This document shows, one piece after another, positions 2,642-55,389 of a DNA stretch of 64,000 nucleotides (positions are counted from its first letter, which is position 1; each line of letters begins with the position of its first letter). The position numbers and the translations under genes were made by a program. Under the pieces are notes generated by a model that searched no databases, had not been told where the DNA came from, and saw only the letters and a list, made by a program, of their open reading frames with translations. The stretch comes from Candidatus Babelota bacterium (GTDB lineage Bacteria > Babelota > Babeliae > Babelales > CAIQNR01). The stretch is taken from positions 32,001 to 96,000 of the forward strand of contig CBFHTA010000002.1 in assembly GCA_965658655.1 (NCBI GenBank), given 5' to 3'.

Positions 2642-5600
2642 CTAAGATATAAATGCCTTAATGAAGTTAGTTACTTTATGACCAATTGATTTTACTGTTT
2701 CCCATAGATTAGTGAACCAGTTTTCTGTGTTTTGGGTTGTTATAGTTTCACTTGTTGATTGGTCTGAGTCTGTAGCACTAATTTTGTTACGTCTTGTTAA
2801 CGGCCTTTTTTGTTGTTGGTAATTAACAGGGCGATCAACAGGTACAAATTTTGATGATGTCGACCTTTTTTCGTCTCTATCGGTAACAGAACTTATTACA
2901 ATTGGAGTTTTAGGTTTTCGTAGCCACGATTTTATATCGCCAACAGGTGAAGTAAATCCTGTAAATCTTTCACCAATAGTTTTGCTTGAAGGCAATCCCA
3001 CTCGTGTTCCCAACGATTTGTTTCTTGGGGGTATAGGTGGTGCAAAGGTACTTGATGGTATAGCTGCAGGTACGGTTTGAGCAATGTTTTTCATTGTGGG
3101 TTTCTGTTCTTGTTTATTGTTTATAATACTATGATTTTGACGATTGTTGTCTGCATTTTCCTTTATTTGATCGTTATTATTTTTTGAATCGGTATCTTTT
3201 TGTATGTCTTCTTCTTTGATACTTCGTGGTGTAGAAGCAACTTCATCTTCTGTTCCTGTGTCTACAGGTGTAACAGTAGAACCGTTTTCGTCATCGCCAC
3301 CTCTTTCTGTCTCCTCTGAACTATCTGTATGAATAGGTCTTGGAAAACGAGGCATTGGATCTGTTAGTATATCTACTGTATCAGTATTGTCAGTATCAGT
3401 ATTGTCAGTATTAGTATTGTCAGTATTAGTATTGTCAGTATTAGTATTGTCAGTATTAGTATTGTCAGTATTAGTAGACATATTATGCGTCACTGTTACT
3501 AATGGTCTTTCTTTTGGGGTAACGGGTGGAACAACTCTTGGTGATTTTATCACTCTTCTTGGGGGGGTATAGGGGGCAATTCTTCGTTTGCTTCCAAAAA
3601 GCTCTTCGAAATATTGTATTAATTTTCCAACTCTTCCTCGACTAGGTTTCTCTATTCTTCTTAGAGGAATACGAGGAATACGTGGACAAGGGACTCCTCC
3701 TCTTTTGTCAACAACATTTGGTTTAACTTTTTTTCTGTCCCCAAAACGAAGACCAACCTTTGAAGGTTGCGCCACTCTTCTTGTATCAACATGTGGACGA
3801 CCGATTGTAGCAATATCCGGGTTAACTGGACGATTAAGACCATTTTTAAATTCTTCAACTCTTCCTCTTAGAGGAACACGTGGACGACCGACTCCTCCTC
3901 TTTTGGGAACAACATTTGGGTTAACTTTTTTTCTGTCCCTAAAACGACGACCAAACTTTGTCGGTTGCGCCGCTCTTCTTGTAGCAGCAACATCTGGGAC
4001 AACTCTTTCTGCGCCTCTAGAGAAAGGATTACTCAAAAAGTTTCTAAATTGTTCCCACATTCCTTGACTAGGTTGTTCTATGTCTCTTGGTCCAGTAGAT
4101 GGACGACCGTTTTGTTCGCTTATTGGTTGAGAAGCTTTTTTTGTACGTTTTTTTCTTTTTTTGACTTTATTCCAGTAGTTTCTGAATTTATTCATAGGGA
4201 ATTTCTTTATAGGCTTTTTAAAGTTTTTTGATGGTTCTGAAGTGCCTGTTTGTGATTCACTAGTCTTAGCTACTTTTTCTGCTTGTATCCTTCTTTTGGG
4301 AAAAATATGTGGAGTGTCGTTTGTTGGTATTTTTTTTACTTGTGTCGGTCTGGGGTTACTCTGTTTTATGCCTCCAGAAAGCCTTTCAAGGAGATTTGTT
4401 AATGCTGTAACGTTACCCTGTTCTATCTCTTCAGAAGCTTTTTTTGTACGTTTTTTTCTTTTTTTGAAGTTATTCCAGTAGTTTCTGAATTTCTTTATAG
4501 TGAATTTCTTTATAGGCTTTTTAAAGTTTTTTGATGGTTCTGAAGTGCCTGTTTGTGATTCACTAGTCTTAGCTCCTTTTCCTGCTTGTATCCTTCTTTT
4601 GGGAAAAATATGTGGAGTGTCGTTTGTTGGTATTTTTTTTACTTGTGTCGGTCTGGGGTTACTCTGTTTTATGCCTCCAGAAAGCCTTTCAAAGAAGTTT
4701 TTTAATGTTTTAACGTTACCTTGTTGTATCTCACTAATTTCAGCTACTTGGCCTGGTTGTACTGCTCTTCTTGGAGCAATATGTGGAATTTTGTCTAGTC
4801 GTATTTTTTCTTTCAGATTACGTACTTTTTGTGTTCGGTTATTATTATTAAACCATATATTTTTAAGCTCAGCAGCCTCGGCTTCAAGTAATCGAGTACC
4901 ATTATTTTTTGCATCTCGCCCAACTGATTTTCGTACTGCCGGTTGTCGCGCAGGATGAACAGGCAATGGGTTTAGTGGTTTTATTGGATCCGTAAGTGTT
5001 TTTCGTGGAAGTTGTTCAAGAATGCTTCTACGATTCTTCAGTTGTTGTATGATTCTTTTTGCAGCTTGGCGTGTTTTTGGGTGTACGCTCGCGGCACCAG
5101 TTGCTGCAAAACCTAATAATTTTACAAGTTCATCTTGGCGATCGGTAGTAAATTCTTTTATTCGTTCCAACGCAGAAGGGTTATTCTCTGTAGTTAGCAC
5201 TTTGCTGGGTTGGTCTTTATGCAGTACCAATGCTTTTGATTGGTTAGTAGCGGGTAATAGTGCTCTTCTGTTGTGTTGTTGTGTATAAAATGTTTGTAAC
5301 ATTTTTTCAAGCTCTGGTGCTAATGCTTGTGCAGCTTCTTGTGGAGTTTTTTGTCCTCCAGGGTTGAATATATTTGTTTCTAATATTTTATCTAGAAGTT
5401 TTTTTAAATCTTTTCTGTTAACAGTAATTCTTTGTGTTGGTCCTGTTTCTTTATTCTTTTGTTTAATAGGAACAAGTCCTGTTTCTTTATCTGTGTATGG
5501 TACAATTGCACTTGAACGTTGGTTTGTTGTTTGTTCAAAATAGTCCGCTAATTTATCCGCTATTTCAGCAGTGGTGGTTTGTGCTCTGTTGTATTGAGTA

Positions 5601-7762
5601 GGTGTGTTCATTGCATTTTGTAATAATTCTGCCAGTGTGGCTTCGTCAATTTTAACAATAAGTGCTCTGTTTGTTTCGTTTACTACCGGAGCGAGTGCTG
5701 TGTTTTGATTAAAAGGAATAAGTTCTTGTGCAGGATTATCAAAGGGTACAATATCGGCAGCAGGTCTTTGGTGTGGTATAACCGGTGCTTCGTCTCTCAT
5801 TGCTAACGCTTTTGGTTCGACTTCATTAAGTTTTAGTTCATCTTGGCGATCGGTAGTAAATTCTTTTATTCGTTCCCATGCAGAAGGGTTATTGTCTGTA
5901 ATTAACAATTCACTGGGTTGGTCTTTATACGGTACTAATGCTTTTGATTGATTAGTAGCGGGCAACAGTGCTCTTCTGTTGTCTTGTTGTGTATAAAATG
6001 TTTGTAACATTTTTTCAAGCTCTGGTGCTAATGCTTGTGCAGCTTCTTGTGGAGTTTTTTGTCCTCCAGGGTTGAATAGATCTGCTTCTAATGTTTTATC
6101 TAGAAGTTTTTTTAAATATTTTTTGTTAACAATAATTCTTTGTGTTGGTCCTGTTTCTTTATTCTTTTGTTTAATAGGAACAAGTCCTGTTTCTTTATCT
6201 GTGTATGGTACAATTGCACTTGAACGTTGGTTTGTTGTTTGTTCAAAATAGTCCGCTAATTTATCCGTTATTTCAGCAGTAGTGGTTTGTGCTCTGTTGT
6301 ATTGAGTAGGTGCGTTCATTGCATTTTGTAATAATTCTGCCAGTGTGGCTTCGTCAATTTTAACAATAAGTGCTCTGTTTGTTTTGTTTACTACCGGAGC
6401 GAGTGCTGTGTTTTGATTAAAAGGAATAAGTTCTTTTGCAGGACTACCAAGCTCTAATGTTTTTTGTAGGGGTGCTTTTGGATTTGCACGATATATATGC
6501 CATAACCCCTCTGGATGTTGGAAAGTTTCGGGTACAATGTGTGGTCGATTCAGTAAATCTGGATTGTTAAGTTTAATAGCTTTGGGTTGTTGTTGATAAG
6601 GAACAATCGCTTGTTGTGTAGCATGAGCAGGAGCAACAGCCATTGGTGCTGATTCCATTGGTGTTGATAGTGTAACTGCATTCGGAGTATCTAGTCTTTT
6701 TGCAATTGAGTTTGGTTGTGCAGCTGGTATTGCAATATCGTTAACTGGTGGTTGGTATGGCGTAACTTTGTCGTTTTGTTCTGCAAAGGGTGCAAGACTG
6801 GTTGGTAGATTTGGCGTTATAGCGAGTTCTCTAGGAACCTTTTCTACTGGTACAAGTGCAGCAGGTTGAGGTTGATGTGACATAACCGGTGCTTCTTGCC
6901 TAACTGCTAATGCTGTTGGCTCGGATTCATCTATAAAAGGGCGATGTGGTGTAGCAAGTGGTCGTTCAACTTCAGGAACAAAGTCATAGCCATCGTCATC
7001 TCCAAATATGCCAAAAGGAATTGTGTAGTCTGCTAAATGTTCGTTTGCATCTTTATTTTGAGCTTTTTTAGATTCTTCATTTTTTTTCTTATGATGTTTC
7101 ATAGAGGTTGATGTAATAATACCTGGATTTTTATTTTCATCATTTAAAATGTTAAGTAGTCCTTTTGAGGGTTCTGTTTCTTTTTTTAAATGATTTGCAA
7201 CGCCGCGCTCCAAGCTCTGGTTATATAACCCTGGTTGCTTGTGATCCTCAAAGAGGCGATTTAATCCTTTTGGTTTGTTTTCTTGAGGAGTTTTTTTAGC
7301 TTCCCCTCCTCCTACAACGCTTTTTTGTTCATATCCAAATAAGGTTTTAAAGAACTTGCCTAGGCTTGACTCACTCTCAGTTTGTAACGGATCTGTTCCT
7401 TCTTTATTGTCAGGATTATCATCATAATATTCTGCTGGAGCACCTAATGGATTCATAGAACTAAGTTCGCCGTTTGATTTAGAGTTGCCGTATTGAATTG
7501 TTTGAGGGTAATAAATTGGAGGTTTATAGGTGGATGCACTTTGTGGATAATTTTCGTTTTCTGAATAACCCTTTGCAGCTTTTGAGCTTGATAGAGGAGG
7601 TGTAGAAATTTTACGTACGAGAGCAGGCATATTTTTTGCCGAACGAACAGTAGGTGTACCTTGTGCTGAACGTGCAAAAACAGACATACCTCTTCCCGCA
7701 GCTGAAAATAAGCTTGTACTAGAAAATAGGGCAAGTAAAAGAACCATCCATTTTTTAACCAT
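2642..7762 (-). CDS. Giant secreted low-complexity repeat protein (~1706 aa)
   Basis: GGAGG RBS before ATG 7762, signal peptide MVKKWMVLLLALFSSTSLFS, several internal duplications. Confidence 0.85.
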   Translation of the reverse strand: MVKKWMVLLLALFSSTSLFSAAGRGMSVFARSAQGTPTVRSAKNMPALVRKISTPPLSSSKAAKGYSENENYPQSASTYKPPIYYPQTIQYGNSKSNGELSSMNPLGAPAEYYDDNPDNKEGTDPLQTESESSLGKFFKTLFGYEQKSVVGGGEAKKTPQENKPKGLNRLFEDHKQPGLYNQSLERGVANHLKKETEPSKGLLNILNDENKNPGIITSTSMKHHKKKNEESKKAQNKDANEHLADYTIPFGIFGDDDGYDFVPEVERPLATPHRPFIDESEPTALAVRQEAPVMSHQPQPAALVPVEKVPRELAITPNLPTSLAPFAEQNDKVTPYQPPVNDIAIPAAQPNSIAKRLDTPNAVTLSTPMESAPMAVAPAHATQQAIVPYQQQPKAIKLNNPDLLNRPHIVPETFQHPEGLWHIYRANPKAPLQKTLELGSPAKELIPFNQNTALAPVVNKTNRALIVKIDEATLAELLQNAMNAPTQYNRAQTTTAEITDKLADYFEQTTNQRSSAIVPYTDKETGLVPIKQKNKETGPTQRIIVNKKYLKKLLDKTLEADLFNPGGQKTPQEAAQALAPELEKMLQTFYTQQDNRRALLPATNQSKALVPYKDQPSELLITDNNPSAWERIKEFTTDRQDELKLNEVEPKALAMRDEAPVIPHQRPAADIVPFDNPAQELIPFNQNTALAPVVNETNRALIVKIDEATLAELLQNAMNTPTQYNRAQTTTAEIADKLADYFEQTTNQRSSAIVPYTDKETGLVPIKQKNKETGPTQRITVNRKDLKKLLDKILETNIFNPGGQKTPQEAAQALAPELEKMLQTFYTQQHNRRALLPATNQSKALVLHKDQPSKVLTTENNPSALERIKEFTTDRQDELVKLLGFAATGAASVHPKTRQAAKRIIQQLKNRRSILEQLPRKTLTDPIKPLNPLPVHPARQPAVRKSVGRDAKNNGTRLLEAEAAELKNIWFNNNNRTQKVRNLKEKIRLDKIPHIAPRRAVQPGQVAEISEIQQGNVKTLKNFFERLSGGIKQSNPRPTQVKKIPTNDTPHIFPKRRIQAGKGAKTSESQTGTSEPSKNFKKPIKKFTIKKFRNYWNNFKKRKKRTKKASEEIEQGNVTALTNLLERLSGGIKQSNPRPTQVKKIPTNDTPHIFPKRRIQAEKVAKTSESQTGTSEPSKNFKKPIKKFPMNKFRNYWNKVKKRKKRTKKASQPISEQNGRPSTGPRDIEQPSQGMWEQFRNFLSNPFSRGAERVVPDVAATRRAAQPTKFGRRFRDRKKVNPNVVPKRGGVGRPRVPLRGRVEEFKNGLNRPVNPDIATIGRPHVDTRRVAQPSKVGLRFGDRKKVKPNVVDKRGGVPCPRIPRIPLRRIEKPSRGRVGKLIQYFEELFGSKRRIAPYTPPRRVIKSPRVVPPVTPKERPLVTVTHNMSTNTDNTNTDNTNTDNTNTDNTNTDNTDTDNTDTVDILTDPMPRFPRPIHTDSSEETERGGDDENGSTVTPVDTGTEDEVASTPRSIKEEDIQKDTDSKNNNDQIKENADNNRQNHSIINNKQEQKPTMKNIAQTVPAAIPSSTFAPPIPPRNKSLGTRVGLPSSKTIGERFTGFTSPVGDIKSWLRKPKTPIVISSVTDRDEKRSTSSKFVPVDRPVNYQQQKRPLTRRNKISATDSDQSTSETITTQNTENWFTNLWETVKSIGHKVTNFIKAFIS
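3378..3476. repeat. 15-bp tandem repeat encoding (TNTDN)n
   Basis: About 6-7 units of gtattgtcagtatta. Confidence 0.95.
4131..4720. repeat. Intragenic tandem duplication, period 303 bp
   Basis: 4131-4417 nearly identical to 4434-4720. Confidence 0.95.
5127..6443. repeat. Intragenic duplication, period 708 bp
   Basis: 5127-5735 nearly identical to 5835-6443. Confidence 0.95.
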
Positions 7763-7990
7763 TTTAACCTCCAAAAGCCTAAATTAAGTTTATTTTGAAC
7801 TTATTTAGAGTATACCATAGATAGATCCTCAGAAACAATGGATCGGAGATGTGATACGCCGTTAAAGTATAAAAGTAACTATTCTAAGCTTAAGGTAAAT
7901 CGGATTTGAATATTATAGGGGGAGAATGATGCTGTTAGGTTTCTATATGGATTTTAAAAATAGGTTTAGAGCAAGTAAGTTAATTGTATT

Positions 7991-13605: not shown

Positions 13606-13968
13606 ATGAAAAATTTTTTTTTAATTGTTTTTCTAATTGTTTGTTTTTCTCTCTATGGTAACGACCAATTACTTGATGCAGTTAATTCTGTTCGTTTAAA
13701 AATTGCTTTAGATAATTTAAACCGATTCTGTGAAAACATAGAAATGGGAATTAATATAGTGATTACAACTGCTGGCATACTTACCTATAGAGAATTAAGA
13801 CCAAAATTTTTTTGGGGTAAATACCCGGTATCGGCAGCTTTATTGCTGACATTCTTGTTAGGAGCAGGGTTGCATGGAGCGTTGCATCTTTATAAAGGCG
13901 CAGAAGCTAAAAAAATTACACAAAAAACTCTGAAATCTGATTTTTCTTTATGTACAAACAACAATTAG
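13606..13968 (+). CDS. Small orphan secreted/membrane protein
   Basis: Signal peptide MKNFFLIVFLIVCFSLYG, two hydrophobic segments, overlaps dprA start. Confidence 0.7.
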   Translation: MKNFFLIVFLIVCFSLYGNDQLLDAVNSVRLKIALDNLNRFCENIEMGINIVITTAGILTYRELRPKFFWGKYPVSAALLLTFLLGAGLHGALHLYKGAEAKKITQKTLKSDFSLCTNNN

Positions 13969-15050
13969 TTCTACATCTTTCTTTAATTGCATCAGTTGGC
14001 CCAGATAAAATAGGCAAGCTGGTAAAAGTTCTTAAAAAAGAAAAAAATCCTGCTAGCTGGTATGCTTATCGGCAACAAGATTTTATGCGTTTAGGGATGA
14101 CAGCACGGAATGCTCAAACCATTGTTGCGGGTCTTGCCAATGCGCAAATTCTTAAAGAAGAATTAGAACTTATCGAAAAATATGCGATTAACTGGACCAC
14201 GATTTTAGATGCTGATTACCCAGCACTTTTAAAAGAAATTCATACTCCGCCTGCAGTTTTGTATTGGCGAGGAGAACCGGTGTGGCAAACCACAGAAAAA
14301 ACAGTTGCATTTGTTGGCGCGCGTAAAGGTACGGCATATGGTCAGAGAGTCGTTAACGCTGTTATTCCAACTTTGGTTGCGGCAGGATACACTATTGTTT
14401 CTGGAGGTGCTTATGGTATCGATACTATGGCTCATCGAGCTACCCTTGAATGTGGTGGAAAAACAATTGTGGTGATTGGTGCAGGTCTTTTAATCCCGTA
14501 TTTGGCTGGTAATCAAAAGCTATTTGAGCAAGCGGCATCTGCAGGAAGTGTTGTAGTCAGTGCTTTTCCATTGATGCACGGTGCTGATAAATGGACATTT
14601 CCGGTACGTAATAGAATTATTGCTGGGTTGTCTCAAGGCTGTGTGGTGGTGCAAGCGGCTAAGAAAAGTGGTGCTTTGATCACCTCAAGTTATGCCTTAC
14701 AAGAAGGTAGACAGGTCTTTGCAGTACCCGGACCGTTTGATGATGAGCTAAGCGTAGGATGCCTAAATTTGATCAAGCAGGGCGCAAAAGTGGTGTGTAG
14801 TGCTCAAGACGTCTTAGAAGAATTTGGAGCTCAAGAAGAGATTTTTGAGCAAATAGAGATCTCTACGGTTGAAGCGCCTAAGCAAAAATTAGACAATTCT
14901 ATTTTAGTCCATTGCGCTCAACCAATAAGTTTATCTGAGCTTATTCAAAAAACAGGCTTAGAAGAAAATAAGCTTAAACAGGATCTTTTTGATCTTCAAT
15001 TAGATGGCAAAATAGAGCAAGATTTTGCCGGTCTATGGAAGCTGCTTTAA
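13950..15050 (+). CDS. dprA: DNA-processing protein DprA/Smf
   Basis: YPALLKEIHTPP, VSGGAYGID, FPVRNRIIAGLS, SGALIT, VFAVPG. Confidence 0.96.
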   Translation: MYKQQLVLHLSLIASVGPDKIGKLVKVLKKEKNPASWYAYRQQDFMRLGMTARNAQTIVAGLANAQILKEELELIEKYAINWTTILDADYPALLKEIHTPPAVLYWRGEPVWQTTEKTVAFVGARKGTAYGQRVVNAVIPTLVAAGYTIVSGGAYGIDTMAHRATLECGGKTIVVIGAGLLIPYLAGNQKLFEQAASAGSVVVSAFPLMHGADKWTFPVRNRIIAGLSQGCVVVQAAKKSGALITSSYALQEGRQVFAVPGPFDDELSVGCLNLIKQGAKVVCSAQDVLEEFGAQEEIFEQIEISTVEAPKQKLDNSILVHCAQPISLSELIQKTGLEENKLKQDLFDLQLDGKIEQDFAGLWKLL

Positions 15051-15133
15051 GTTTAAAACCTTGACCTGTTGAGGTTTTGGTTTGTGTTGCTACAATTATA
15101 AGTAGTATTTTAAGTGGATTTCTGGAGGTTGTT

Positions 15134-15332
15134 GTGAAAAAAAAACTAATATTTTTTATTTTTTCGACCTGAAGATGATTTGCGTGAGTTAAATAAATTA
15201 GCTGAGACACAAGAAAAGATTGCTAAAGAGAAAAGAGAGTTTTATGAAAATTTATCTCGCGAATCTCTTAAGCTTATGAGAGAGAGAGAAGGAATAACTG
15301 AGGAAGAGTGGAATAAAAAGTATGGCAAATAA
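15134..15332 (+). pseudogene. Broken signal-peptide start (VKKKLIFFIFS) fused to a 5'-truncated gene end
   Basis: GTG 15134 is homologous to the start of 16077..16469 and stops at 15170. In the +1 frame, 15168-15332 reads PEDDLRELNKLAETQEKIAK...WNKKYGK* with no own start. Confidence 0.6.
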
Positions 15333-15364
15333 GTTAGTCTAAAAATTGATTTTGAAAGGTTATT

Positions 15365-15733
15365 ATGAAAAAGTTTTTATTATTGACGCTAATATTATTT
15401 GGGAGTGTGTTTGCCAATATGAAACAAAATGCATTTAAAGAAAAGATGATACAAGAAGCCGAAAAGGAAATGTTTTGTGCTGAAAAAGATTTAAACAAAT
15501 CTCGAATAAAAAGATCTTTAGTGGCCACTTTTGGACTGTTGCTTATGATAGCATCTCTAGATAGTCATTTAAAGAATCATGATAATATTACGGGGCCAGT
15601 TTTGATGGGTCTAGTGGGTCTAGGAAATAGTCTTTTTCGATTTGAGCTAGAGTGGTTTATAAATAAGAAAAGTTATAGTAATGCAAATCGAGCTTTAATC
15701 AATGTTTTACGTAAAGTTGATGAGCAAAAATAA
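15365..15733 (+). CDS. Small orphan secreted/membrane protein (cassette 1)
   Basis: AAGG RBS, signal peptide MKKFLLLTLILFGSVFA, hydrophobic hairpin. Confidence 0.75.
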   Translation: MKKFLLLTLILFGSVFANMKQNAFKEKMIQEAEKEMFCAEKDLNKSRIKRSLVATFGLLLMIASLDSHLKNHDNITGPVLMGLVGLGNSLFRFELEWFINKKSYSNANRALINVLRKVDEQK

Positions 15734-15790
15734 TTATTGTTATAAGGTTATTTAAGAAGACCAGTTTTAGGGTTGCACCCGACTTTTTTA

Positions 15791-15978
15791 AAATAGAGAT
15801 CTCTACGGTTGAAGCGCCTAAGCAAAAATTAGACAATTCTATTTTAGTTCATTGCGCTCAACCAATAAGTTTATCTGAGCTTATTCAAAAAACAGGCTTA
15901 GAAGAAAACAAGCTTAAACAGGATCTTTTTGATCTTCAATTAGATGGTGAAATACAGCAAGACTTTGCCGGCTTATGG
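15791..15978 (+). repeat. Copy 2 of dprA 3' end
   Basis: 8 mismatches in 188 nt versus 14851-15038 (manual count). Confidence 0.97.
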
Positions 15979-16076
15979 CAAGTGGTTAAAACCTTGAAAT
16001 CCCACTCTAGTTGAGTTATTTCTCTTTTTTTGCTATAATTTTATAAGTTTAAATTAAATGACTTCTGGGGGTTGTT

Positions 16077-16469
16077 GTGAAACAAAAACTTATACTTTAT
16101 ATTTTTTCGAGTTTATTTTTAGGGTTGCACCCAAGTAATTCTTTTTTTGATAATGAGTTGAGTCGTACAGAAAAATATATTTCATTTTTAAAGTATAAAG
16201 AGTCGCAGCTAAGAGAAAAAGAGAAAGGAATTAAAACAAATTTAATGTTGCAATTCCAAAAAAACTTACAAAATATTACTATGGGGCCACCGAGACAATT
16301 AGGTTTAGTAAGGATGATTAGTTTAGCTTCTTTTTTAGTGAATTATGTGCCGGCTACTGTGCATTTAAGTTTGACTTATACTGATAACAAGACCACTCAA
16401 AAAGAGTTGTCTACCTGTAAAAATTACTCTGACATGCTTAAATCATTAAATAAATCTTTTATTGCATAA
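16077..16469 (+). CDS. Small orphan secreted protein (cassette 2)
   Basis: TGCTATAAT at 16031, GGGGG RBS, GTG start, signal-like N-terminus. Confidence 0.75.
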   Translation: MKQKLILYIFSSLFLGLHPSNSFFDNELSRTEKYISFLKYKESQLREKEKGIKTNLMLQFQKNLQNITMGPPRQLGLVRMISLASFLVNYVPATVHLSLTYTDNKTTQKELSTCKNYSDMLKSLNKSFIA

Positions 16470-16484
16470 GTTGGAAATTTTTTG

Positions 16485-16723
16485 CTTAGAAGAGTTTGGA
16501 GCTTAAGAGGAGGTTTTGGAGCAAATAGAGATCTCTAGGTTTGAAGCTCCTAAGGCAAAAGCAGACAATTCTATTTTTAGTTCACTGGGTTCAACTTATA
16601 AGTCAGTCTTGACTCATTTAAAAAACAGTCTTAAAAGAAAGTAAGCTTAAACAGGATCTTTTTGATCTTCAATTGGATGGTAAAATACAGCACGACTCCG
16701 CAGGTTTATGGCAGCTTACTTGA
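16485..16723 (+). pseudogene. Copy 3 of dprA 3' end, degraded with indels
   Basis: Matches 14813-15050 (cttagaag..ttggagct, aaatagagatctcta, aagcttaaacaggatctttttgatcttcaat) and ends KQDLFDLQLDGKIQHDSAGLWQLT*. Confidence 0.92.
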
Positions 16724-16756
16724 AGCCCTTTGTTTTTTTGCCTTTTCCGTTTATTT

Positions 16757-16765
16757 TGCTATAAT
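16757..16765 (+). promoter_or_regulatory. Extended -10 promoter upstream of rpmF
   Basis: TGCTATAAT; homologous elements follow dprA tail copies 1 (15088) and 2 (16031). Confidence 0.65.
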
Positions 16766-16832
16766 TATCCTATCTATTAGGCGCCTAAGGCGTCATTTCT
16801 ATTAAAGATTTTAGGCTACCAAGGAGTTTGTC

Positions 16833-17126
16833 ATGCCAGTACCAAAGAGAAAAAGATCTCGTCAGAGAAGAGATAAGCGTTTTGCTAACAAAGGCGTTAA
16901 AGTTCGTTCTATTTCAAGCTGTACCAACTGTTCAGAAGCTGTGTCTTCTCATACAGCGTGTATGTCTTGTGGATTTTATAAAGGCCGCAAAGTGTTAGCT
17001 ACTAAGTCTGACCGTTCAGTTCGACGTGCAGATGAGCGCAAAGAAAAAGAAGGAAAACAAGAAGCATTACGACAAAAGCTTGAAGCTCAAGCAGCTCCAA
17101 TTGAAGAGCCAAAAAAAGCTGAGTAA
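16833..17126 (+). CDS. rpmF: 50S ribosomal protein bL32 with charged C-terminal extension
   Basis: MPVPKRKRSR, CxxC...HxxCxxCGFYKGR. Confidence 0.95.
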   Translation: MPVPKRKRSRQRRDKRFANKGVKVRSISSCTNCSEAVSSHTACMSCGFYKGRKVLATKSDRSVRRADERKEKEGKQEALRQKLEAQAAPIEEPKKAE

Positions 17127-17173
17127 TCTTTTGTTTGAGTAGTATGAAGAAAAAACTATAGAGATCGTTCGTA

Positions 17174-52364: not shown

Positions 52365-52454
52365 ATTTGGCATGTTTCTATCTTGACGAGACTGATAAAA
52401 ACATGTCAAAGTGAAGAACTAACCTGTCTTTTAACTAAGCGTAAGGAGAGAAAG

Positions 52455-53732
52455 ATGAAACGTTATTTTTTGGGGTTATTACTAGTGGTGTCTGCGCAAA
52501 TTAATTCTGTAGTTGTGTATAATGATGCAAATCCTCCCGGGAAATGGACCCATCAAGAGGTTACGCCTGGGGTAATAGATATTACTTTTGGTAGTAATAA
52601 TACCGGGTATGTAACTGCTGACTTGGGGATAAATGATCAAGATCATCAAATTAATGCTTTGGTTAAACAATCTGATGGTAAATTAGTAGGTGCCGGGTAT
52701 AGCAACAATTCGAGCGACAAGACACGTTGGGCCTTAGCACGTTTCAGTGAGGATGGAGTGCTTGATACTACTTTTGGTGGAAGTGATACAGGATATGTGT
52801 TTTTGAATTTCGGTGATAGCAATGTAGATCATACTCTTTATGCGTTAATTCAGCAAGCTGATGGTAAATTAGTGGCTGCAGGATTTAGCAGAAATTCAAG
52901 TGGATACAATAGATGGGCGTTGGCACGCTTTAGTAAAGATGGAGTTCTTGATACTACTTTTGGTGGGAGTGATACCGGGTATGTTTTCTTAGATTTTGGT
53001 GATAGTTCTCGTGATCATGAGATTAATGCTCTTGTAGAAACTTCTGAAGGAAAGTTAGTTGCTGGTGGTTATAGTGATAACACTGATGACGATGAACGTT
53101 GGGCCCTTGCAAGATTCAGTAAAGATGGCGTGCTCGATACCACGTTTGGTGGGAGTGACACCGGGTATGTTTTCTTAGATTTTGACACGGGAGGTCAGGA
53201 CCATGAGATTAATGCTCTTGTAGAGACTGCTGAGGGTAAGTTAGTTGCAGGTGGACATAGTGATAATGCAAGCAATAAAAAGAGTTGGGCACTCGCAAGA
53301 TTTAGTAAAGAGGGAGTGCTCGATACCACGTTTGGTGGTAACAGTACGGGTTACGTTACATTAAATTTTGGTGATGCTACAAGAGAACATACTTTGCGTG
53401 AACTGATTCTTCAGAGTGATGGAAAGTTGTTAGCTGGTGGTTATAGCGATAATACGAGTGATATGAATAGATGGGCAATTGCACGGTACAGTGAAGATGG
53501 AGTGCTTGATACTACTTTTGGTGAGAGTGGTACTGGATATGTCTTTTTGAATTTTGGTGATGATAGCAATGACCATGAAATTGATGCAATGCTTTTAGAG
53601 AGCAACGGAAAGATAGTAGTAGCGGGCGCAAGTGAACTTACCGGGAGTTATGAACGCTTTGCCTTGGCCCGTTTTAGTAATAATATTCCACCCCTTAATT
53701 TGATAGCTGCTTTTGCAGGAATGTTAGGATAG
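52455..53732 (+). CDS. Secreted delta-60-repeat protein 2
   Basis: Repeats DGKLVAGG...RWALARFSKDGVLDTTFG; start moved to ATG 52455 (AAGGAG RBS). Confidence 0.9.
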   Translation: MKRYFLGLLLVVSAQINSVVVYNDANPPGKWTHQEVTPGVIDITFGSNNTGYVTADLGINDQDHQINALVKQSDGKLVGAGYSNNSSDKTRWALARFSEDGVLDTTFGGSDTGYVFLNFGDSNVDHTLYALIQQADGKLVAAGFSRNSSGYNRWALARFSKDGVLDTTFGGSDTGYVFLDFGDSSRDHEINALVETSEGKLVAGGYSDNTDDDERWALARFSKDGVLDTTFGGSDTGYVFLDFDTGGQDHEINALVETAEGKLVAGGHSDNASNKKSWALARFSKEGVLDTTFGGNSTGYVTLNFGDATREHTLRELILQSDGKLLAGGYSDNTSDMNRWAIARYSEDGVLDTTFGESGTGYVFLNFGDDSNDHEIDAMLLESNGKIVVAGASELTGSYERFALARFSNNIPPLNLIAAFAGMLG

Positions 53733-53740
53733 TAGTACAG

Positions 53741-53880
53741 CTTCATTAAAACATAGGCCTCAAAGATAAGGCGCATATCGACATCTACATAAGTTGATGG
53801 CGCCTTTTTGCTTCCAAGACTCTTTCATACGGTACGGTTCAGATTATAATTTTGCGTTAGAACAATATTGCTTCTTTAGA
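53741..53880. pseudogene. Junction relic: displaced 3' end of the flippase-like gene fused to a delta-60 gene fragment
   Basis: 53800-53833 matches 55551-55584 at 32/34 nt; the following acggttcagat...aatattgcttc resembles 52102-52125 and 52313-52324. Confidence 0.8.
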
Positions 53881-54012
53881 GTTGGGTACCTCCTGGGGGA
53901 ATAGTAGGATAGCATCTTTTTTCTTTGTCTTTCTTCTATCTTGACGAAGTTGATAGAAACATGGCAGAGTGAAGAACTAACGTATCTTTTAACTAAATAT
54001 AAGGAGAGAAAG

Positions 54013-55389
54013 ATGAAACGTTATCTCATGGGGTTATTACTAGTGGTGTCTACGCAAATTAATGCTGAAACTGTGTATAGTGACAAAACTCCTCCCGGGA
54101 AATGGACCCATCAGGAGATGAAACCTACAGCTTTATTGACTTCCTTTGATGGTGGGAATGGTAAGATATCAAGTGATTTAGGGGCTAATACTGTTGTAAA
54201 GGGTATGGTAGTTGATAAAAACGGTGACATTTATGTTTGTGGTTCCCATGGATCTACAGCTCATGCTATGGTGGCTCGTTATAAAAAAACTTCTAACGGG
54301 GTTCATGCTTTAGATACTTCATTTGACGGTACTAATGGCTATGTGAAATTTGCTACCGAGGCCGCTTCAGTTGCCAATGCTATAGCTTTGGACGGAGAGA
54401 GTATTTATGTTGTTGGTAGCGGAACTGTGTCATCAGCAGGTAAATTAATAGCAAAACTTAAAAAATCAGATGGAAGCCTAGACACAACGTTTAGTACTGA
54501 TGGAATTTACCTTTCTACTGCTCTTGGAACAAGCGCAGTAGGTCATGGCATTGTAGTTGATGACAAACATGTATATGCGGTAGGTACAGACGGAACTGAT
54601 GCTACTGTTATAAAAGTTACTAAGTCAGCCGGTGTTGCAGACACTGTTTTTGATGGAGATTCTGGTACGGGCGGTAGCAATGGGGAGTTAACAGTCGATG
54701 TAAGTGGCAGTACTGACATAGCTTATGATGTTGTTGTAGATGGCACTACTCTTTACATTGTCGGTGATGGAGGAAGTGATTATTTTGTTGTTAAAATGGA
54801 TGCACCAACTGGAAAACTTCATACTGCTGCAAATGGCTTTACCGCATTTGCTACTAATGGTATTGCCTATACTTCTGGTGATTCCAATGCTGTGGCAAAA
54901 TCGGTAGTACTTGATAAGGATTTTCTTTATGTGGCAGGTAATAATGCAAGTACCTCTGCTGTTATACAAAAGTATAATAAATTAACAGGAGGATTGAAGG
55001 ATGATTTTGGTACAAGTGGTAGATGGGAAAGTGCTACTGTTGGTGCTCTTAATAGTGTAAAGCTCTTAAATAGAAAGCTTTATGTTGCGGGCGTAAAAAG
55101 TTCAAAAATGTCTGTAGCTCGATTGAATACGACAGGTACGAGTCCTTTAGATACTTCATTTTTTACTAATGGTTATGATGTAGCATTAGGAGATAACGCA
55201 ACACTTGGAGCAGTTGCTCTTGATTTTCTAAAGGAACCTCATTTACCAATTATACTTGCAGGTTATGATGCTAGTAGTGGGAACTTTATTGAATTAACTG
55301 TTTATGAAAACGATGTTGATATTCTTAGTGCTGCTCGCGTTGCAGGTCTTTCTGCTGGGCATCTTTCTGGTGGGCTCACCCATAGTTAG
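54013..55389 (+). CDS. Secreted divergent delta-60-like propeller protein 3
   Basis: Shared PPGKWTHQE N-terminus, LDTSF/LDTTF repeats; start ATG 54013. Confidence 0.85.
   Translation: MKRYLMGLLLVVSTQINAETVYSDKTPPGKWTHQEMKPTALLTSFDGGNGKISSDLGANTVVKGMVVDKNGDIYVCGSHGSTAHAMVARYKKTSNGVHALDTSFDGTNGYVKFATEAASVANAIALDGESIYVVGSGTVSSAGKLIAKLKKSDGSLDTTFSTDGIYLSTALGTSAVGHGIVVDDKHVYAVGTDGTDATVIKVTKSAGVADTVFDGDSGTGGSNGELTVDVSGSTDIAYDVVVDGTTLYIVGDGGSDYFVVKMDAPTGKLHTAANGFTAFATNGIAYTSGDSNAVAKSVVLDKDFLYVAGNNASTSAVIQKYNKLTGGLKDDFGTSGRWESATVGALNSVKLLNRKLYVAGVKSSKMSVARLNTTGTSPLDTSFFTNGYDVALGDNATLGAVALDFLKEPHLPIILAGYDASSGNFIELTVYENDVDILSAARVAGLSAGHLSGGLTHS

Follow-up and report, generated by a model that had tools for sequence, protein, structure and literature searches.

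How did three copies of the end of a housekeeping gene come to lie in a row, with small genes between them, in a genome of under one megabase? In most genomes of the order to which this Candidatus Babelota bacterium belongs, dprA and rpmF are separated by about 0.1 kb; here the junction measures 1,782 bp. We analyzed it in a 64,000-nucleotide stretch of contig CBFHTA010000002.1 (hereafter, the window), which derives from a metagenome-type assembly of four contigs and 0.93 Mb. A first-pass annotation had suggested that the junction may be an integron-like hotspot for gene capture anchored in dprA. The array is instead a neat case of a rearrangement already known in kind, and not a new gene-capture or recombination system.

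The triplication of the dprA tail claimed in that annotation was borne out by a repeat search and by BLAST. All three copies lie at the dprA–rpmF junction, and BLAST found no others in the 928,713-base genome. The repeat family (D1) comprised 14851–15050 in the live gene, 15791–15990 (94% identity, ungapped) and 16524–16723 (66%, ungapped); with gaps allowed, BLAST put copy 2 at 86% and copy 3 at 83% identity to the live tail. We refer to the copies as T1 (live), T2 and T3, and to the segments that begin with T1 and T2 as units 1 and 2. The left borders are unequal: T3 starts from dprA position 14811 and T2 from 14851, about 40 nt apart, such that T1 has 14811–15050 in common with T3 and 14851–15050 in common with T2. 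T2 lacks a canonical start codon, and a deletion of about 9 nt has removed its stop, so that eight further codons are read; the ORF list contained no plus-strand ORF of at least 30 aa for it. T3 differed from T1 at 38 of 238 aligned nucleotides (12, 9 and 17 at the three codon positions) and is frameshifted, with one TGA and one TAA inside; its indels and its place ahead of rpmF were as first described.

Table 1 Features of the dprA–rpmF junction, in window coordinates.
Feature	Position	Strand	Remarks
up120, orphan small signal-peptide/hydrophobic ORF	13606..13968	+	overlaps dprA start by 19 nt
dprA, live gene, 366 aa	13950..15050	+	Pfam DNA_processg_A
T1, live tail	14811..15050	+	codes for the post-linker C-terminal domain of DprA
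P1, promoter-like site, TTGAGG-16-TACAAT with TG	15069..15096	+	consensus match
SP1a, ribosome site and 5′ stump of signal-peptide ORF, pseudogene fragment	15117..15172	+	repeat D2, 88% to 16060-16110
594 bp insert in the unit-1 signal-peptide ORF	15168..15762	+	probable borders, from the unit 1/unit 2 alignment
p122, orphan ORF	15365..15733	+	signal-like N-terminal segment, internal hydrophobic segment
SP1b, 3′ remnant of the unit-1 signal-peptide coding sequence, fused directly to T2	15763..15790	+	repeat D9
T2, young displaced tail	15791..16013	+	repeat search, alignment
P2, promoter-like site, TTGAGT-17-TATAAT with TG	16011..16039	+	consensus match, 10/12
p130, orphan ORF, GTG start, G-rich ribosome site	16077..16469	+	signal-like N-terminus, internal hydrophobic segment
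T3, old displaced tail, pseudogene, original dprA end	16487..16722	+	alignment to T1
Native rpmF upstream block with P3 and leader	16725..16832	+	84% to sister genome G001 over 212 nt
P3, promoter-like site, TTGCCT-16-TATAAT with TG	16738-16765	+	within the native rpmF upstream block
rpmF, ribosomal protein L32	16833..17126	+	Pfam Ribosomal_L32p, E=1e-18

The product of the live gene matched the Rossmann-like DprA core domain (PF02481) over residues 75–283 (E=7e-69; score 231.6 bits, cut-off 29.6), and dprA aligned at full length with its orthologs in 38 of 40 relatives. A recount over 14851–15038 reproduced the eight differences in 188 nt reported between T1 and T2, and the concentration of six of these in the last 31 nt was confirmed (hypergeometric P=2.8e-4). 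Synonymous changes made up six of the eight (binomial P=0.004 versus the 25% expected under free decay). Copies 2 and 3 had also been said to share variants against the live gene; ggt, cag, gac and tta were found in this state in the 3′ end. At three of these sites the sister genome G001 carries the bases of copies 2 and 3; at the remaining one it has caa, also glutamine, where the live copy has gag; on this evidence the live copy appears to be the derived one. The derived states fall mostly on the live copy, in a polarization that comprises eight sites, one pseudogene and one distant outgroup. A scan of the genome collection for closer relatives returned G001 again and no other, and the 33 related loci found in metagenome contigs reached 37–44% identity at best, none of them being closer.

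Identity between units 1 and 2 was 98.7% in the tail body, 80.6% at the tail end, 62.6% (with gaps) in the promoter and 88.2% at the ORF start, and T3 holds a 33-nt identical run (permutation P=0.02). This patchy divergence suggests that gene conversion may have acted among the tail copies. The heterogeneity of this divergence, the clustering of the differences and the synonymous excess point to a mosaic origin, and a mosaic or imported end of the live dprA, as in icd/icdC, would fit. The proposal that the live C-terminus is a newly imported allele thus gains some support, from the synonymous bias, the derived states on the live copy and the 3′ clustering.

Behind each of the three tails lies an extended −10 promoter-like site with TG, as judged by consensus matches; over the whole region such sites numbered 12 versus 8.8 ± 3.4 expected, which is no enrichment. 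P1 is homologous to P2 (alignment z=9.7, 1000 shuffles). Descent of P1 and P2 from the rpmF promoter P3 was considered and set aside, the likeness not being significant (z about 1.8; 56–57 of 1000 shuffles). The repeating unit of tail, promoter and start that had been proposed therefore holds in part: the promoter-like site recurs after all three tails, but the module of a ribosome site and a GTG-AAA start (repeat D2, 88%) stands downstream of copies 1 and 2 only, and what comes after copy 3 is the native rpmF leader, with no GTG-AAA module. Among known RNA families, the segment 13000–18000 gave a single sub-threshold match, and the 707 bp dprA–rpmF interval of one relative (L014) gave none.

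Copy 1 leads into an ORF reduced to a stump of 12 codons, with a GTG at 15134 and a stop at 15170–15172, lying within a listed ORF at 15077..15172. It is interrupted by the 594 bp insert, which carries p50 (15180–15332) and p122 and has no second copy elsewhere in the genome; GACC stands on either side of the insert, although a match of 4 nt may be chance. The remnant of the stump beyond the insert was recognized by a 16-nt exact match (repeat D9) between 15765–15780 and 16117–16132. In p122, the hydrophobic windows span residues 1–19 and 48–67, and its codon score of 0.19 is within the range of real genes; the score of p130 was 0.16. p122 had no Pfam or PHROG family, matched only itself among 1.84 billion representatives, was absent from 150 genomes of the order, and in the protein atlas had matches of 0.84–0.88, under the useful level. 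p130 had no family in Pfam, PHROGs or the protein atlas, matched only itself in 5.8 billion clusters, and was found in none of 150 other genomes of the order, where a single chance-level match (E=0.008) contained five stops. The cargo ORFs are thus strict orphans, without a phage or mobile-element family. BLASTP among up120, p122, p130 and p124 of G001 gave no sign of paralogy save for one N-terminal match; between p122 and p124, 15 of 35 N-terminal residues were identical (E=0.003), which is too weak for orthology. Elsewhere in the genome, small signal-peptide genes occur in at least four further tandem pairs. A shared N-terminal signal sequence is visible in three of these pairs, and two of the pairs contain repeats of 73–194 nt (88–91%) that span the gene starts, so local duplication of such genes is common here.

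The age of the copies can be read from the rpmF side. The gene order dprA–rpmF–TPR–gltX is kept in relatives, and the dprA–rpmF distance is 81–214 bp in 16 of the 21 relatives that have rpmF downstream. The conserved match to the upstream block of G001 begins at window position 16725, directly adjoining T3. This adjacency and the short distance in relatives identify T3 as the ancestral end of dprA. With T3 the oldest copy and T2 a young one, new material came in on the dprA-proximal side, which is the direction of growth that had been claimed. The accompanying claim of decay graded with distance stands for the order of T3 and T2, but the gradation is blurred by the patchy divergence. For every relative, the final 240 nt of its own dprA were searched against its locus, 1.2–1.5 kb downstream, leaving aside L030 (whose match was without the C-terminus) and L004 (the window itself); none of 28 relatives had a second tail, the only hits being chance matches of up to 23 nt. 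An invariant interval had been named as evidence against a growing array; the interval does vary, from 81 to 707 bp, yet tail copies were found in no relative.

Because the assembly is of metagenome type, two strain variants might have been stitched in series, or a repeat wrongly expanded, and an identical stretch of 58 nt (14851–14908) exceeds the word size of the Logan contigs, such that entry to and exit from the repeat cannot be paired from these contigs alone. For the same reason, the contigs would formally also fit a chromosome lacking unit 1 together with a 940 bp circle, although no joint of an excised circle was reported among them. Contigs from run X1, assembled independently from public reads, nonetheless spanned 14978–15820 (T1 end, cargo 1, T2) and 15918–16671 (T2 end, p130, T3) with zero differences, and T1 was recovered without differences in runs X2 (14902–15103) and X3 (14896–15139). 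Depth in the Logan contigs was 18–25 in shared pieces and 8–12 in unique parts, about twofold; an artefact is hard to reconcile with the equal depth of the unique parts (7.9–11.6) and the doubling of the shared ones, with the presence of the same pieces in X2 and X3, or with the joint of signal-peptide remnant to tail, which cannot derive from a single-tail strain. We consider an assembly artefact very improbable. Among the sequencing runs listed for the locus, none was of RNA. Run X4 contained fragments of a relative at 85–92% identity; its contigs leave 15089–16540 uncovered at 85% likeness, which is no sign that cargo is missing. These fragments hint that the relative may have two different tails too, in which case the array would be older and recurrent.

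The joint ahead of T2 links two non-homologous points of local sequence, SP1b and dprA position 14851; the only candidate microhomology there is a T-run in both parents, with no clean fit. Unit 1 is collinear with unit 2. The irregular joints, the signal-peptide remnant and the P1/P2 homology indicate that unit 1 is unit 2 in rearranged form, as a copy or an allele, and not foreign element DNA. We somewhat favor an origin by two successive illegitimate-recombination duplications at a variable junction, without a dedicated recombinase, and we infer the following route. In a first event, a block of the DprA C-terminal tail, a promoter and p130 would have been set ahead of the original tail, and the latter (T3) would have stayed beside the rpmF promoter and decayed. 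In a second event, a block of T1, P1 and the start of a similar signal-peptide ORF would have been set ahead of T2, with dprA position 14851 joined to a point inside the signal-peptide coding sequence; the unit-1 ORF would have been left as a stump, further split by the 594 bp insert with p50 and p122. The last 31 nt of T1 and P1 would come from a diverged but functional allele that either entered from a related strain through one-sided-homology (HFIR-like) or unequal recombination or is itself a population mosaic, and the tail bodies would have been held alike by recency or by gene conversion. Within this reading, an imported allele and an in-genome tandem duplication followed by conversion appear about equally probable. 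As the incoming block brings its own tail, dprA stays intact, and a swap of the DprA C-terminus follows as a by-product; every event gave DprA a new end, in line with the claim that each insertion swaps it. Homology-facilitated illegitimate recombination (PMC3240628) is a candidate route, one that would yield exactly the second event from a homologous anchor, the dprA body, and an illegitimate joint. The genome encodes, besides DprA, RecA and a ComEC-type domain match.

The hotspot reading of the first-pass annotation, a cassette platform with site-specific insertion at the dprA-proximal end, draws on the ordered small units with one short ORF each, the newest of them beside dprA as in integron arrays, and on the variable interval length among relatives. 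The machinery of an integron is missing: there is no adjacent IntI-type gene, no attI and no attC. The only tyrosine recombinases (PF00589) in the genome are two proteins of about 304–311 aa, encoded at C2:108488, roughly 60 kb from the array, and at C1:519236 on another contig; the segment 12500–18500 contains none. DNA folds at the joints (15700–15810, z +0.21; 16430–16540, z +1.30) showed no attC-like hairpin, and the repeat search gave no inverted repeats at the unit ends. Integron cassettes have no promoter of their own and are transcribed from one common promoter, and their insertion causes no duplication of the gene alongside; here consensus matches place a promoter-like site in each unit, and the end of the neighboring gene is duplicated. 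The borders are unequal, one joint falls within a fragment of a gene that has its homolog in the next unit, and there are just two units, with none in 28 relatives. An integron-like platform is thus scarcely credible. The same low probability applies to the idea that the spare tails serve as silent donors from which conversion introduces variation into the DprA C-terminal domain. The patchy identity among the copies would suit such conversion, but T3 is frameshifted and contains stops, there are only two donors, relatives have none, and DprA, being cytoplasmic, would offer no evident selective reason for variation.

More weight is due to decayed integrase-driven elements, a prophage or island, that targeted the dprA 3′ end twice in tandem and supplied a replacement tail, their integrase and nearly all their cargo having later been deleted in a shrinking genome. 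The inserts are flanked by direct repeats of the 3′ end of an intact target gene, and there are precedents: phage 21, like e14, sits in icd. The cryptic prophage e14 of E. coli K-12 lies in the icd 3′ end and supplies a replacement end as here, the original end is kept downstream as a C-terminal fragment pseudogene (icdC) like the displaced tails, and the live and displaced ends differ chiefly at synonymous sites near the stop, as do T1 and T2 (PMC13626634). This matching pattern of differences keeps a decayed integrative element under consideration. The successive rpsI islands of Macrococcus (McRI-mecD with McCI) likewise stand in tandem with direct repeats that include the gene 3′ end (PMC5341023); there, dprA is island cargo and rpsI the target. 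The prophage e14, however, measures 15 kb and brings a site-specific recombination system of its own (PMC13626634), and the Macrococcus islands have an integrase, a 61-bp core att site and excised circles (PMC5341023), none of which were seen at dprA. The inserts at dprA are 0.7–0.9 kb and have no recombinase, and the 1.8 kb junction contains no integrase, excisionase, phage or conjugation gene, the tyrosine recombinases being distant. Unlike e14, the dprA array has unequal borders (homology reaching to 14811 or to 14851), unit-to-unit homology that points to local duplication, and two stacked rounds. Since the left neighbor of T2 is homologous to the interior of unit 2, an extra deletion ending exactly inside T2 would be required, and no second tail occurs within 1.2–1.5 kb downstream in the 28 relatives. 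Among the titles and abstract openings listed by a literature search, none named dprA as an attachment site, which is not proof of absence in print. On balance, we regard decayed integrative elements as unlikely.

Two illegitimate duplications at the junction, the origin that we favor, would leave a joint-by-joint record of how a 0.93 Mb genome can still acquire orphan genes, equipped with promoters, at a housekeeping junction that is otherwise conserved, and of how such acquisition can, as a side effect, give a gene a new end. For annotation, the two dprA-like fragments here should be taken as pseudogene debris. DprA is a protein that processes incoming DNA. A broader and quite doubtful reading is that recombination feeds the junction as a nursery for secreted or membrane proteins specific to the lineage, in a genome that is reduced and probably host-dependent: DNA of related strains would be anchored on the dprA body and illegitimately joined, each capture adding a promoter-equipped orphan and swapping the C-terminal domain of DprA. 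If the imported-allele reading is true, the live end of dprA would testify that a lineage with a very small genome recombines with related strains.

The genome comprises 928,713 bases in four contigs and is 95% complete, and all sampled members of the order have genomes of 0.7–1.5 Mb. In relatives the conserved gene order is gyrA-(rrm)-dprA-rpmF-TPR-gltX; in the window dprA and rpmF are separated by 1,782 bp. The last 200–240 nt of dprA, the domain after the linker, occur in three copies (T1 to T3, from dprA to rpmF), all in this region and none elsewhere in the genome. Repeat and genome searches and contigs of public run X1 thus confirmed the three tails described in the first-pass annotation. 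Each is followed by a TG-extended promoter-like site (P1 to P3), as had been proposed, whereas the ribosome site and GTG-AAA start said to accompany it were found after T1 and T2 only (repeat family D2, 88%). Homology to dprA begins at 14811 for T3 versus 14851 for T2. The best-conserved tail blocks are also 73–77% complementary over 35–40 nt to the rpmF 3' end (inverted repeats I1–I3), probably by chance.

Features of the dprA-rpmF array and of related loci (window positions unless a contig or locus is named)
Feature	Coordinates	Description
1710-aa ORF	2642–7774, minus strand	long internal DNA repeats
Repeats in 1710-aa ORF	4127–4732; 5127–6450	303 nt tandem, 94.7% identity; 616 nt, 95.3% identity, spaced 708 nt apart
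up120	13606–13968	120-aa orphan ORF between RRM protein gene and dprA; overlaps dprA start by 19 nt
dprA	13950–15050	Pfam DNA_processg_A, E=7e-69
T1		live dprA end
Signal-peptide half after P1	15117–15167	ORF ends after 12 codons
Insert	15168–15762	594 bp, GACC on both flanks; carries ORFs p50 and p122
Signal-peptide remnant left of T2	15763–15790	28 nt of p130 coding sequence, including 16-nt exact match (D9)
T2	15791–16013	no canonical start (no ORF ≥30 aa listed); stop lost through ~9-nt deletion
T3	16487–16722	indels, one TGA, one TAA
rpmF	16833–17126	L32
Best-conserved tail blocks	14965–15004; 15905–15944; 16643–16677
rpmF 3' end, complementary	17096–17135
Tandem signal-peptide gene pairs	C1:409163–410000; C1:215691–216581; C1:478541–479954; C2:84383–87389	last pair = window 52383–55389
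Relatives' rhodanese-domain ORFs	L020:2690–3130; L033:2709–3179	coordinates approximate, maybe off by one
Relative's long interval	L014:2602–3308	707 bp

X1 probably represents the source sample, which would make it dependent on the same data as the assembly. Two of its Logan contigs show no differences: one links the T1 end via the first cargo to T2 (14978–15820), the other the T2 end via p130 to T3 (15918–16671). Depth was 7.9–11.6 in unique parts versus 18–25 in shared tail pieces, and T1 was confirmed by two runs of the same study (X2 and X3). Because the identical 58 nt opening T1 and T2 are longer than the word size of these contigs, it is the original assembly that pairs entry with exit; formally, a chromosome lacking unit 1 (T1, P1 and the split ORF after them) plus a 940 bp circle is possible. 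Run X4, from a different study, contains fragments of a relative (~85–92% identity). In one of its contigs, tail sequence resembling the live copy runs straight into the block upstream of rpmF, and another tail fragment differs from that tail at one site at least; these could be two tails or two strains.

Among relatives, rpmF lies downstream of dprA in 21 of 28 loci, with a gap of 81–214 bp in 16 and 403–707 bp in five. The interval is thus variable in length, as anticipated, but extra tails did not materialise: a second copy of the own dprA tail was found in 0/28 loci. In the sister genome G001 (DprA 68–70% identical), the gap of ~604–610 bp holds one 124-aa signal-peptide ORF (p124) and no tail copy was found in it. 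The block upstream of rpmF is 84% identical between the two genomes over 212 nt and begins at window position 16725, three bases past the T3 stop, which marks T3 as the original end of dprA, in its old position. T1 and T3 differ at 38 of 238 aligned nt (12, 9 and 17 by codon position, as expected of a pseudogene) and T1 and G001 at 59 of 226; the two genomes thus separated long before the T3 event. The proposed polarity, with the oldest tail at rpmF and new material next to dprA, is largely upheld by the position of T3 beside the conserved block. The public label of the G001 contig (L005, also L073) names a free-living gammaproteobacterial species, which is at odds with a 0.8 Mb sister genome and looks wrong. 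Two other relatives carry a signal-peptide rhodanese-domain ORF in the interval (PF00581, E=1e-9, in L020; judged by eye only in L033). To the eye the L014 interval is rich in G+C; none of its ORFs exceeds 67 aa, nothing in Rfam matches it at gathering score, and it could represent a decayed gene or an RNA not yet described.

Eight of 188 nt distinguish T1 from T2; although based on few sites, tests indicated clustering (six of them within the final 31 nt, P=2.8e-4), synonymy in the dprA frame (six of eight, P=0.004 against 25%) and a 33-nt run in T3 identical to T1 (permutation P=0.02). Identity between units 1 and 2 (the latter T2, P2 and p130) is 98.7% in the tail body, 80.6% in the tail end, 62.6% with gaps in the promoter region and 88.2% in the ORF start. 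Where the copies vary, T2, T3 and G001 are mostly alike and live T1 is derived. Change is expected to be faster in a dead copy than in one that is live, so the pattern points to a diverged but functional allele as the origin of the T1 end and P1, the tail bodies being homogenised or recent. The suggested swapping of the DprA C-terminus was largely right.

The cargo ORFs p122 and p130 matched no protein family, and homologues were absent from 150 genomes of the order as well as from 5.8 billion clusters (p130) and 1.84 billion representatives (p122). Both combine a signal-like N-terminus with an internal hydrophobic segment, as do up120 and p124; up120 shares this build without detectable similarity to the cargo ORFs. 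Codon scores of the small ORFs (0.16–0.23) fall in the low part of the real-gene range (5th percentile 0.146), although part of this test is trivial for frames free of stops. At least four tandem pairs of small signal-peptide genes lie elsewhere in the genome. In three, the N-terminal signals are visibly shared and near-identical, whereas the C-terminal ends, as far as displayed, are different; the fourth (C1:478541/479337) has similar sequence at either end. Repeats of 73–194 nt (88–91%) cross the gene starts in two pairs. This suggests that promoter-plus-signal modules are often duplicated or converted locally in this genome.

P1 is homologous to P2 (z=9.7), and the insert parts two halves of one signal-peptide sequence; unit 1 thus corresponds to the left part of unit 2, of which it is a copy or allele in rearranged form, with a joint from gene interior to tail start. 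Such a joint is a signature of illegitimate recombination, not of a site-specific system. The integron-like hotspot envisaged at dprA found no support, each defining feature that could be tested failing: the joints fold no better than shuffled DNA (z +0.21 and +1.30), both tyrosine recombinases of the genome are far from the array, and one joint lies inside a gene.

We favour, with some confidence, the view that a variable junction underwent two rounds of recombination of the illegitimate, or one-sided-homology, type. Each round would bring in a tail, promoter and small ORF and displace the earlier tail; RecA and a ComEC-type domain match are present in the genome. The main rival, decayed integrative elements, draws on E. 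coli e14, where icd/icdC likewise has a displaced C-terminal fragment with mostly synonymous differences (PMC13626634), and on the Macrococcus rpsI islands, described as accreted in tandem (PMC5341023). The dprA array resembles both, but retains no integrase or element gene, its tail borders are unequal, and its two units are homologous to each other, which makes this origin unlikely. The dprA-rpmF array is a new example of an already known kind of rearrangement.
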